Shown here: positions 5,030 to 21,000 of the stretch, piece by piece
Layout: the number at the start of each line of letters is the position of its first letter
Position numbering within the stretch: position 1 is the stretch's first letter
NCBI GenBank assembly: GCA_046290465.1
Contig: JBKAGP010000001.1
Location: forward strand, 3,136,001 to 3,200,000
Origin: Planctomycetota bacterium
GTDB taxonomy: Bacteria; Planctomycetota; UBA1135; UBA2386
Direction of reading: 5' to 3'
Length of the DNA: 64,000 bases
Position numbers and translations under genes: made by a program
The notes under the pieces: model-generated
The model's input: the letters and a program-made list of their open reading frames with translations, nothing else
Database searches by the model: none
What the model was told of the DNA's origin: nothing

Positions 5030-5096
5030 ACCGCCGTGCCGCGCCGTGACGTGCTTGGTGCGTTCGCGCCGAGCACGTCTGGCATCGTCGCCGACG

Positions 5097-5470
5097 ATGC
5101 TCGGCTCGATCGCGATCATCTCGCTGCTGGTCGGCGGCATCGGCATCATGAACGTCATGCTCGCGACGTCACCGAGCGCACTCGCGAGATCGGCATCCGG
5201 CGCGCGCTCGGCGCGCGTCGCAGCAGCATCGTGTGGCAGTTCTTGATCGAGACGATCGTGCTCCGCTCGATCGGCGGCCTGCTCGGCGTGCTGTTCGGCG
5301 TCGGCATCCCGGCGATCATCACCCTGCTCAGCGGCAACCTGACGATCGTGCTCGCGCACCACGTCGCGCTCGCCGCCGGCATCTCGATCGCCGTCGGCCT
5401 GTTGTTCGGCCTCTATCCGGCGTGGCGGGCGGCGTGCATGGATCCCGTCGAAGCCCTGCGACACGAGTAG
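5097..5470 (+). pseudogene. Truncated, frameshifted MacB/FtsX-type ABC permease C-terminal remnant
   Basis: [23 protein letters not shown] is in one frame; [40 protein letters not shown] continues in another. One base appears missing near 5167-5168, and no N-terminal region is present. Confidence 0.8.
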
Positions 5471-5502: not shown

Positions 5503-6663
5503 ATGCGCGCCCTCCCCGTGGCCTTCGTGCTGTCGTCGCTGGCGATCTCCGCGACGGCGCAGTCTCCCCAACTCGACCAGGCCCGATTCACCAAGCTGCA
5601 CCGACAGCTGCGCCCCGACCCCGACGCGATCTGGCGCAGCATCCCGTGGCGCATCGACCTGCTCGCCGCCCAGCGCGAGGCAGCCGAACAACGCAAGCCG
5701 CTGTTCGTCTGGGCCATGGACGGCCACCCGCTCGGCTGCACCTGAAACAACGGCGTGATCGACCGTGTGTCGACGTTCGCCAACCAGGAGATGGCCACGA
5801 TGCTGCGCACGCAGTTCGTGCCGGTCGCGATCGACCAGGCCTACGAGCGCCGGCAGCAGGACGCCGAAGGCGAGTTCTACCGCAAGTTCGCCGGGCAGGG
5901 TCCCCGCGGCGACTTCGCAGGAACGACCCAGGGGTTCTACGTGGCGACGGCGGCAGGAGACCTGCTGCTCTACAACAACAACCGCGACCCCGCGAAGGTG
6001 CTTCGCCTGGCGAAACGAGCGCGCGAGCGGTTTGCCGCGAGCCCGGCGGCGAAGGCCGAGGTCGCGTCGATCGACCACGGCCGCGTCGACGCGCGCTACG
6101 CCGTCACCCCGCCCAGCGGCGGCCTGGTCGTCCGGGTGCACGGCAAGGTGCTCGGCGGCTACGCCCCCACGGACGAACCGTTCCAGAAGGCGATGCAGCA
6201 GGCCTTGTCCCGCGACAACCTCTGGATCACGCAGGAAGAACGACAGGCGCTGCTCCGCGGCGAGCTACCGGATGCACTGATGCGTCGCCTCGCGCGCTAC
6301 CACCTCGTCGACGGGACGCGCGGCGAACCACCGATGTGGCGAGCGGACGAGGTCTTGACCCTCGACGTGCATCGCAAGGGCGACCGCGTCTCGGGTCGCA
6401 TACGCCTGGGCACCAAGGACGGCAAGCGTGGCTACGAGGCCTCCTTGCTGGGCTTCGTCGCGACCGAGGGCGAACGCGTCACGCGCTTCGACCTGGTCGT
6501 CGACGGTACGTTCCACGGCGAAGGCCGCTACACGCGAGGCGCCCCGGAAGGAGCGTTCCCATTCGCCGTCGCGTTCTCGCTGGCAGACGGCAGCGATGTC
6601 GCCGACGCGATCCCGCCACAGGGCTCACGCGGCTGGGTCGACGGTTACCTGAAGGCGCGCTGA
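5503..6663 (+). CDS. Putative exported selenoprotein, thioredoxin-like fold, C-T-U motif (in-frame TGA at 5743-5745, codon 81)
   Basis: ORFs 5233..5745 and 5755..6663 share a frame and are separated only by the TGA. Joined sequence: IPWRIDLLAAQREAAEQRKPLFVWAMDGHPLGCT*NNGVIDRVSTFANQEMATMLRTQFVPVAID. A signal peptide is present and a hairpin follows the TGA. Confidence 0.8.
5752..5781 (+). promoter_or_regulatory. Candidate bacterial SECIS hairpin
   Basis: Lower stem GGCG(5752-55)/CGCC(5778-81), upper stem TCGAC(5759-63)/GTCGA(5769-73), loop CGTGT with G at position 2. There are 18 nt between the UGA and the loop. Confidence 0.6.
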
Positions 6664-11658: not shown

Positions 11659-17907
<6,249 letters not shown>

Positions 17908-18016
17908 GGCGAGCTGGGGGTCCTTCGGATCGATCGAGTCCTTGCTATCGACCGTAGGCGCACAAGCTACGCGCCCCCCGCCAAGAATGCGATGGCACCG
18001 ACCGTTGGCCGACGCC

Positions 18017-21000
18017 TCAGCGAACGTGCGGAACGCCGACGTCCCGATGGGACGCACGATCGGCGGTCACGTCGAGCGCGAGCCGGTAGCGACGGCCGGC
18101 CTCGCTGACGGCGGTGACCTCGACGCGGCCGAGCGGCAGCAGGGCCGGCACGCGGTAGATGCCTTCGATCGCCGCGACCTTCTGCTCGAATACGATCTCG
18201 CCGTTGCCGAGCCGCGCCTGCACCTGCAGCGCCGTCTGGTCGCCGTCGCCGGCGAACGTCAGCGCACAGATCCGGCCGACCCGCACGTCGATCGTCAGGT
18301 GCCGGCTCGCACCGGCCGTGACCGAGACCTCGGCCTCGGGGATCACCAGTTCGTCGCCAGGCGGGCCGCCGACCACGTAGACGCCGGCCGGCACCCGCGT
18401 GACGACGACCTCGTCGCCGTCGATCGCATAGTCGACGTCTTTCGTGGTCAGGTAGCGATCGCCGGTGCGCAGCCACGGCATCGGCGGCCGCGCGGTCCAC
18501 GGCCGACCGTCCGGACGTCGGTAGCGGATCCGCAGCGTCGCCTCGCGCGCCAGCACGACGTCGCCGAGGTCGAGCTGCTGCCCCTCCTGGAGTTCGACGT
18601 CGCGATGCAGCGTCACCCGGCCGGCCGCGCCCAGGCGCAGCCGGTGCCGACCCGCCCCCAGTTCGACGAACTCGAACGTGCCGTCGGCGCCGACGCCCGG
18701 CTCCTCGAACACCGGCGAGTCCGGCATCATCCCCCACGCATCCCGCACCGGCTGCCCCTGGCCGTCGACCACCCGCCCGCGCACCAGCGCGCCCGGCAAC
18801 CGCTCGGCCGGCACCGTCAGCGTCGCCAGCTGCCCAGGCGTGGCCCGGACCGTCGCCACCGGCGCATCGTGCACGTCGGCCTCGTCGCGATGCAGGCGCA
18901 CCGTGTGCTCCGACCCCGCGACTCCCCACAGCGACGCCTGCCCCGTGTCCCGCACCTTCGCCGTGCGCACGCCGGCCGAGGTGTCGACCGCGACGACCCA
19001 ACCGACCAGCGAACGGCCGCTCGACGTCTGCACCGCGACGCGCAGCGGCGGCAGGTCGTCGAGCACGAGGTCGACGCGCATCTCGAGGCCGTCGCGTCCT
19101 TCGAAGCTGCGGCTGACCTTCTCCCGCGTCGCGTTGCGCATCGCAGCGAGTTCGAACGGGCGGTCCTCGACTCCTTCGAAGCGGAACGAACCGTCGGCGC
19201 CCGACAGCAGCGGCATCGACGTTCCATCGCCGTAGGTCAACCAGACGTAGAGGCCGCTGCGCGGCGCGCCGTCGCTGCCGCGCACGTAGCCGTAGAGGGC
19301 CGCGCGACGCCGCACCACCAGCGCGACCTGCGCCGTCGCACCGCCACGCACGTCCGCCAGCGCATTGGCCGGCGCGTCCGGCAGTTGGCGCGCGACGCAG
19401 GAGTGCAGACCCTCGGGCAGACCGTCGATCCGGAACCGCCCGTCGCCATCGCTGAAGGCGATCGCCGGCAAGCGTGGCCCGATCAACGTGCCGTCCGCAT
19501 CCCTTCGCAGTCGATCGACCTGGTCCTGCACGGCGACGGCAACGCCCGCCAACGGATTGCCGTCCTGGTCGGTGACCCGCCCGGCGATCGCTCCGGGAGC
19601 GCTGCCGAGCCGCAGCACGATCTCGCCGTCGCCGAGCTGCTGGACGGGGTGGGACTCGGAGGCGACGAAGCCGGGCTTGCGCGCGGCCACGTATTCTTCG
19701 AGCGGGGCGTGGTGCAGCGAGAACCGCCCCTGCTGGTCGCTGCGCGCAGCCAGCCGCACCAGGTGCGGCGGCCGCGAGTAGTCGCCGACCCGGTTGCCGA
19801 CCCACAGCTCGGCGCCCGCGACGGCCGCGCCGCGCGCGTCGACGACGCGGCCGCGGACCTCACCGCCGAGCGTGACGTGGATTTCGACGCTCTGCCGGCC
19901 GCCGCCCTCGATCGTGCACGCGCGAGGTTCGCCGAGCCGGAGGCCACCGGCATACACCGCGAAGCGCCAGACCCCGACCGCGAGGTCGTCGAACGCGACC
20001 GCGCCGTCGTCGTCGGTGCTCGCGCGCAGCAGGCGGCCGTCGAGCGGACCGTCGCCGCGTTCGCCCTGCCACGCCTCCACCAGCACGCCGACCATCGCGA
20101 CGCCGCTGCCGGCCATCGAGACGACCTCGGTGAGCATCGGCCCCACCACGTGCGCCCGATCGGCGCGAACCACGACCCGCGCGCCACCGACCGCGGCCCC
20201 GACCTCGTCGCGCACCGCCTCGGCCGCACCGGGCGCCGTCGCATCGCCGCCCGCATGCCGCAGCGCATCGTCGCCATCGAGGTCGCCGCGCGCGGTGGCC
20301 ACCTCGGCCGCGTCGTCGCCGCCCGGCGCGACCGCGTCGTCCGGCGGCGTCACCGCCCACCAGACCAACAGCGCCGCCGCCAACGCACAGATCCCCAGCA
20401 ACACCTTCTTCATCGCGAGCCCTCCGAACGTCACCGCGCCGACGGTCGCCGTCGCCGCAGCCTGTGCCGCGGCTGCGGCCATCACCTTCGCCTTGACCGC
20501 GGCCAGCCCGCGTGGCGCCAGCGCGGCCACCGCGAGGGTCCAGACCGACGCCGGCAGCACGCGCCGCAGCGCAGCCAGCCCACGATGGATCCGCATGCGC
20601 ACGGTGCCCGGCGCCGCGCCGACCACCTCGGCGATCTCCGCCGGCTGCAGGCCGTGCTGCAGCTGCAGCAGCAGCGCCTGCCGCTGCTCGTCCGGCAGCG
20701 CGTCGACGTGCGTTCGCAGCTGCGCGACCAGGTCGCGCCGCTCGGCCTCGTCGCCGGCCGCAGCGACCAGGTCGTCGGGCAGACCGGCGCCGCGCCGCCG
20801 CCCTTCGCGGCGACGCAGGTTGTTGGCCTCGCCGGTCAGGATGCCGGACAGCCAGGCCGACACCGTGCCGTCCGCTTCGAACGTCGCGGCCTTGCGCATC
20901 GCGACCACGAACGTCGCCTGCAGCGCGTCCTCGGCGTCGGCGGCGTTGCCGGTCAGATGCATCGCCACCCGCAGCAACTCTGGCGACACCGCGTCGAACA

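Follow-up and report, generated by a model that had tools for sequence, protein, structure and literature searches.

A predicted exported selenoprotein interrupted by an in-frame TGA codon

The region 5503–6663 of the window, i.e. of the whole stretch of 64,000 nucleotides of planctomycete DNA that was analysed, is recorded by gene finders as a pair of small proteins of unknown function, but is almost certainly a single gene for an exported selenocysteine redox protein. That it is one gene whose UGA codon is read as selenocysteine (Sec) is held with very high confidence. The complete interpretation, which comprises UGA read-through, export, activity as a thioredoxin-like Sec oxidoreductase, a remote, non-orthologous relationship to selenoprotein N (SELENON), and absence from the catalogues checked, is assigned a probability of about 0.78.

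The reading frame opens with ATG at 5503 and runs through 80 codons to the motif GHPLGCT, where it meets TGA at 5743–5745; 305 sense codons follow, up to the terminator TGA at 6661–6663. The original prediction of a joined product of 386 amino acids was reproduced exactly. With translation table 11, the same region is split into an upstream open reading frame ending at 5745 and a second one, starting with GTG, at 5755–6663. The following features were assigned:

5503–6663 (+): selenoprotein gene in full, with Sec encoded by codon 81 and a product of 386 aa; based on frame and relatives
5503–5559 (+): predicted cleavable signal peptide, residues 1–19 (A-T-A before Q20); cleavage site assigned by eye
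5560–6051 (+): N-terminal helix and thioredoxin-fold domain of the DsbD-gamma/Thioredoxin_7/DUF255 type
5737–5739 (+): Cys79, probable resolving cysteine of C-x-U; present in 41/41 close loci and in 30/36 TGA genes of the paralogue clade
5743–5745 (+): in-frame TGA for Sec81, which opens the helix after the second strand; based on relatives, model and contigs from two samples
5752–5781 (+): bacterial SECIS-type hairpin with variable lower stem; based on folding, comparison and the bSECIS model criteria
6118–6660 (+): beta-rich C-terminal domain, weakly matched by profile to the middle domain of SELENON

The TGA at codon 81 is not an assembly error, because contigs from two samples (X2/X4 and X6, one of which is possibly the source sample) cover positions 5743–5745 with zero differences. 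A single RNA run (n = 1) yielded scattered or foreign pieces only, and the TGA codon was without coverage.

Domain architecture and proposed function

Structure prediction, which had been suggested as a check, returned an AlphaFold model with a thioredoxin domain, in which Sec occupies the position of the nucleophilic cysteine, and a beta-rich C-terminal domain, for which no clear fold match was found in the PDB. The model places Sec81 at the N-terminus of the active-site helix, after the second strand, in agreement with the claim that the TGA falls mid-domain between a strand and a helix; its register with the CxxC motif of DUF255 proteins was read by eye from alignment and model. A CxxC or UxxC motif is absent, since the sequence is C-T-U-N-N-G, with Gly at the position of the second cysteine; the position of the cis-proline, also assigned by eye in the alignment, shows a conserved T-Q-G. 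The most conserved motif of the family, H267-L-V-D-x-T-R-G-E-P (6301–6330), is located in the C-terminal domain. Identity to DsbD-gamma, Thioredoxin_7 (PF13899), DUF255 (PF03190) and AGR-type domains (PDB 3f9u, 3ira, 3ph9) is 11–15%, and the protein differs from these by the lack of CxxC, a longer loop before the active-site helix, the extra C-terminal domain, and Sec.

By analogy, the protein is most likely a periplasmic selenol oxidoreductase. SelB and tRNA-Sec would translate through the UGA, aided by the hairpin 18 nt downstream, as the comparative data suggest, and the signal peptide would export the product from the cytoplasm. Sec81, which according to model and alignment lines up with the cysteine that attacks in CxxC proteins, might as selenolate attack oxidised sulfur in an envelope protein or a small molecule; following the known chemistry of thioredoxins and selenoenzymes, Cys79, where present, would resolve the intermediate as a selenenylsulfide, and an external electron donor would recycle the enzyme. 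The conserved C-terminal domain probably selects the substrate or a partner protein. Across 71 loci, no conserved gene neighbourhood was found that points to a substrate or electron donor.

The proximity of kinase genes and fusions to kinases support a different role as the main rival, namely that of an extracytoplasmic redox or metal sensor, the Sec residue of which would report oxidation or bind a soft metal and pass the signal on to Ser/Thr kinases of the membrane and to ECF sigma factors. An analogy is provided by SELENON, which regulates SERCA. A Ser/Thr kinase is encoded nearby in 6/71 loci, together with an ECF-type gene (identified by motif) in three of these six, and in the database proteins P0157, P0168 and P0182 a Ser/Thr kinase domain and a transmembrane helix precede both domains of the module, the Sec column being occupied by Cys, Ala or Ser. 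Moreover, many paralogues keep the fold without Sec or Cys, and the Cys at position –2 is dispensable. On the other hand, 65/71 loci, including that of the gene itself, are devoid of a kinase or ECF neighbour, and two of the three kinase fusions have neither Sec nor Cys at the site. We consider a sensor role unlikely, and a selenol oxidoreductase remains the preferred reading.

The gene is preceded by the remnant frame of an ABC permease, and an oxidoreductase gene faces it in convergent orientation (names assigned by eye). At 5036–5470 (+), only the 3′ end of a MacB/FtsX-type permease frame is present, directly after a long exported protein, and appears remnant-like by eye; 11659–18057 (–) of the window holds a large frame, likewise judged by eye, resembling a type I polyketide synthase of about 2130 aa. 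A paralogue, C1:3132151–3133362 (–), corresponding to L063:1468–2679, lies about 2.6 kb before the start of the window. Its product of 404 aa is 28% identical, has the GHPLGCTU motif, a signal peptide and a downstream hairpin, and belongs to a second clade with a long C-terminal domain. A third gene for an exported thioredoxin-like protein, at about C1:4742745–4743903 (+), likewise has an in-frame TGA (G-D-I-D-G-F-A-U) and a hairpin with a CGTGA loop, followed by a different C-terminal part.

The Sec codon in related genomes

The closest related records are mostly from Planctomycetota. In 41 related genome loci the Sec column is TGA (39 loci) or TGC (two loci), flanked by near-invariant residues on both sides, as expected from the proposal that homologues should carry TGA or Cys within a conserved context; Cys at U–2 is present in all 41. 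Taken together with the Sec machinery and the covarying hairpin described below, this pattern bears out the reading of UGA as Sec. The two TGC loci, L057 and L058, are from Gemmatimonadota, the latter from the unpublished genome G302; both genomes still carry selA, and the occurrence of Cys is thus not explained simply by a lost Sec machinery. The SECIS-like hairpin is kept behind TGC in L057 and lost in L058, as after a recent Sec-to-Cys change. A hydrophobic, signal-like stretch was found upstream in 41/41 TGA loci and in 0/2 TGC loci. Cys at the Sec column also occurs in P0125, P0132 and P0144. Since the Cys forms L057, L058, P0132 and P0212 have no signal peptide, they are probably cytoplasmic.

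A motif scan of 30 further loci, one of them the gene itself, gave 25 matches in 24 loci, all with TGA. In the more distant paralogue clade, for which 43 loci (40 of them hand-chosen from the match table) were scanned, 38 matches in 37 loci comprised 36 TGA, one GCC and one GAC codon. The Cys at –2 is replaced in six of these 36 TGA-bearing genes; the predicted C-x-U motif thus exists as C-T-U in our protein, but the constant element of the family is Sec alone. Twelve loci missed by the motif scans were rechecked with an HMM, which revealed a stop at the column in nine, Cys in two, and one locus not spanning the site. In the distant members L203, L205 and L206 a vicinal Cys directly precedes the stop, instead of C-x-U. 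Loci L087 and L204 contain tandem pairs of family genes, and the second copy in L204 is without a Sec codon.

A profile of 124 sequences was searched against 301 Planctomycetota genomes. Strong matches (E of 1e-40 or better) were obtained in 89 genomes, often with several copies and nearly all with one TGA inside. The family is present in 88 of the 218 selA-positive genomes and in one of the 83 without a selA match, with the reservation that related genomes are not independent. A search of a protein database listed at least 120 homologues out of 1205 matches, i.e. 119 besides the entry of the gene itself. Among the matches listed, 118/119 begin just after the Sec codon, consistent with the prediction that standard gene callers would split the gene. 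Sixteen distant database homologues span the site, and ten of them have a non-redox residue (A, G, S, E, N, W), which indicates that redox chemistry is dispensed with in part of the superfamily. The varied non-Cys residues named in the original prediction as an argument against Sec occur in these distant proteins; the close loci contain TGA or TGC exclusively.

A SECIS-type hairpin downstream of the TGA

The hairpin consists of an upper stem of 5 bp (5759–5763/5769–5773) and a lower stem (5752–5755/5778–5781). Its loop CGTGT (5764–5768), within which the Arg88 codon lies, starts 18 nt past the UGA and has G at position 2, so that refolding gave the structure that had been described. The folding energy is –12.3 to –14.3 kcal/mol. 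With a 5-nt loop, 5 bp, a spacing of 18 nt and –12.3 kcal/mol, the hairpin falls within the bSECIS consensus (loop of 3–9 nt, stem of 4–16 bp, G in the first two loop positions, spacing of 16–37 nt, ≤ –7.5 kcal/mol) as laid down in the accessible part of a 2026 review (PMC13188914). Since its energy is no better than that of shuffled sequences (z from –0.63 to +0.69) and ordinary for GC-rich DNA, support for the hairpin is comparative.

The covariation analysis proposed earlier provided this support. Across 40 aligned rows, 87.1% of the cells are paired, a value reached in 0/500 shuffles (a test inflated by kinship) and compared with 6–42% in slid controls; two pairs are changed on both sides. 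When the set was widened to 61 rows, chosen by the motif N-N-G-x-x-D-R behind the TGA and comprising 44 distinct ones, the five core pairs were kept in 42–44 of the 44 distinct rows, and pair 18–30 is realised as CG in 30, GC in eight and TA in four. The swaps in this pair are mostly coupled synonymous changes of Leu and Ser codons (CTC/TCG, CTT/TCA, CTG/TCC). Of the gene's 136 four-fold degenerate columns, Arg88 and Ser90 alone reach a third-base conservation of ≥0.9; Arg88 is encoded by CGT in 39/40 rows, as compared to 3–7/40 at ten other conserved Arg columns.

If the TGA were a true stop, the locus would encode an exported piece of 80 aa and a cytoplasmic protein from GTG 5755, or else be a pseudogene. 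This would agree with the start at codon 85 of 101 of the 119 database homologues among the matches listed, and with G as the third base of that codon in 33/38 four-fold rows (0.87). Such a break would, however, separate a core strand of the thioredoxin fold from the active-site helix; all stops whose codon was determined are TGA, the TGA alternates with TGC, and both the covarying SECIS element and the co-occurrence with selA would be left without reason. We regard a true stop as highly improbable and return to UGA as a Sec codon.

The host genome (6.59 Mb, 70% GC, 94% complete) was searched for the Sec machinery, as the original prediction had proposed, and selA, selB, selD and tRNA-Sec were all detected, each above its curated cut-off. 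Its selD carries an in-frame TGA of its own, and the hairpin folded for it also has G as the second of five loop nucleotides. Reading of UGA as Trp or Cys through an altered code or leaky suppression appears more improbable still: P0008, the one full-length database homologue, has Trp at the Sec column, which may stem from a TGG codon or from gene calling with a different code, but TGA is the ordinary terminator of the gene and of many homologues, the only tRNA of the genome with a TCA anticodon is tRNA-Sec, and the natural sense-codon substitutes in the close clade encode Cys.

Comparison with known selenoprotein families

None of the 124 family members passes a cut-off in a scan with NCBIfam and Pfam models. 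The only NCBIfam family matched by several members (15/124, best E 0.00017) is VPGUxxT type 2 (NF041383), a selenoprotein that has the thioredoxin fold and a similarly placed Sec. Membership of our gene was rejected on account of its score (14.2 bits versus a cut-off of 275), its different motif, and the presence of the true member elsewhere in the genome. This member, L095 (C1:4807037–4807906, –), contains two in-frame TGA codons, the second in the motif G-M-S-U-F-W, which we take to be MsrA-like.

Among the families in Table 1 of the 2026 review, as far as accessible, TsoC (NEPxGxxU, NF045708) resembles HPLGCTU in motif spacing, and "Thioredoxin-like selenoprotein Sec.1" (Pfam PF13192) shares the CxU motif (PMC13188914). 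The TsoC model of 87 positions (NF045708 cut-off 45 bits) matched nothing in the genome at E up to 10, and neither NF045708 nor PF13192 matched any of the 124 family members at E up to 0.01. No entry of the table of 119 selenoprotein families in the accessible part of the review fits by motif and model (PMC13188914), and a text search of the accessible part of the deep-Sep report (PMC12013277) found nothing. The family is thus uncatalogued with respect to that table and to the accessible text of BSepDB (PMC13326102), whose sequence table could bear on this absence.

Relationship to selenoprotein N

The Sec context had been noted to resemble the SCU site of SELENON. In the ESM Atlas, the first match of a natural Cys homologue was indeed a eukaryotic "Selenoprotein N" cluster (0.91, 196/256 features), a score to be read against the 4–10 of 100 shuffled proteins that reach 0.9. 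For profile comparison, SelN sets were compiled from a metagenome scan with a short SelN motif, which gave 65 loci and from these seven full-length eukaryotic frames, recognised by a hydrophobic anchor and a SCUG-type motif, and 17 bacterial frames. The thioredoxin domain of our family matched the bacterial SelN orthologues in hhalign with a probability of 93.6% (E 2e-7) over 108 columns in which Sec is in register, and E was 0.0016 for the match to the eukaryotic set; an independent profile of the paralogues gave 86.5%. On these profile alignments, the thioredoxin domain is a remote homologue of that of SELENON, with Sec in register.

Orthology is ruled out. The eukaryotic and bacterial SelN sets match each other with 100% over 342 columns, far above the score of our family, so that another bacterial family is the direct orthologue. 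In a tree of thioredoxin domains, SelN forms a clade (98/96) on a long branch with our family outside, although branches are long and deep support is weak, and no grouping of the family with SelN against DUF255-type proteins was obtained. Since the family and SelN share weak matches to the same generic Pfam models and are separated in the tree, the family is a relative and not a member of SelN. Of the earlier suggestion, a real remote homology of the thioredoxin domain stands, and orthology does not.

The direct bacterial SELENON orthologues were found in environmental metagenomes (L103, L109, L114, L121, L123, L125, L130, L140, L153, L158, L162, L163, L166 and others). Where complete, they have about 465 aa and the motif S/T-C-U-P-S-G, or SCUGSG in L163; L153, L162 and L163 are examples of S/T-C-U-P/G-S-G. 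No NCBIfam model was found for them. One database relative is labelled Planctomycetes, and an unpublished thesis reportedly mentions a SelN orthologue from Poribacteria.

Common to both proteins are a thioredoxin-like domain that is exported or luminal, the position of Sec within it, and Gly and Arg at U+3 and U+7, respectively (Arg88 in our protein); the vicinal Cys-Sec of the three distant family members is a further likeness. By count, the arginine corresponds to human R469, and R469Q/W are listed among the causes of myopathy in the accessible part of PMC3541580. Differences are the motif, CTUNNG (C-x-U) here versus SCUG as given in the accessible text of PMC12839072, a signal predicted to be cleaved where SELENON has a type II anchor, and the lack of an EF-hand match, whereas both eukaryotic SelN scanned gave weak EF-hand matches. 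Furthermore, the beta domain precedes the thioredoxin domain in SELENON, but is the last domain in our family.

With respect to this domain order, a profile of the C-terminal domain from 45 sequences of the long subfamily matched the SelN middle domain with a score of 28.3 (E 0.0017, 100 columns), as compared to ≤22.5 in 100 shuffles; with 63 real profiles from the same genome as null, the values were 18.7 or 21.4. Features common to both domains are the His of an FH motif and an L-x-G...D-x-x-x-x-x-x-x-x-F hairpin. However, two other profiles of the domain, albeit in the same register, scored 18–22 and thus within the null range, and a domain-swapped family profile gave 253 collinear columns with SelN and no gain in score. 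Circular permutation between the family and SELENON is therefore suggestive, with about even odds. A broader reading, to which we give somewhat less than an even chance, would make the family a circularly permuted two-domain SELENON homologue with the C-terminal domain equivalent to the middle luminal domain; the SELENON core would represent an ancient Sec redox module of the bacterial periplasm, which in Planctomycetota branched out, with either order of the domains, into enzymes as well as kinase-linked sensors.

Implications

Sec is prevalent in Planctomycetota, with selA in 218/301 genomes, and the phylum is not named in the accessible main text of the 2026 review (PMC13188914), BSepDB (PMC13326102) and deep-Sep (PMC12013277). 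The family, strongly matched in about 30% of the sampled genomes of this phylum yet recorded almost wholly as truncated hypothetical proteins, adds a large group of members to the bacterial selenoproteome and points to selenium redox chemistry in the planctomycete envelope.

To our knowledge, it has long been an open question what substrate, reductant and structure human SELENON has. These points become accessible to experiment with a soluble bacterial relative of 40 kDa for which natural Cys forms and a model of high confidence exist, the more so if the permutation is confirmed; in that case, the small soluble members would for the first time offer tractable models in which the structure and enzymology of the SELENON core and its myopathy mutations can be studied.
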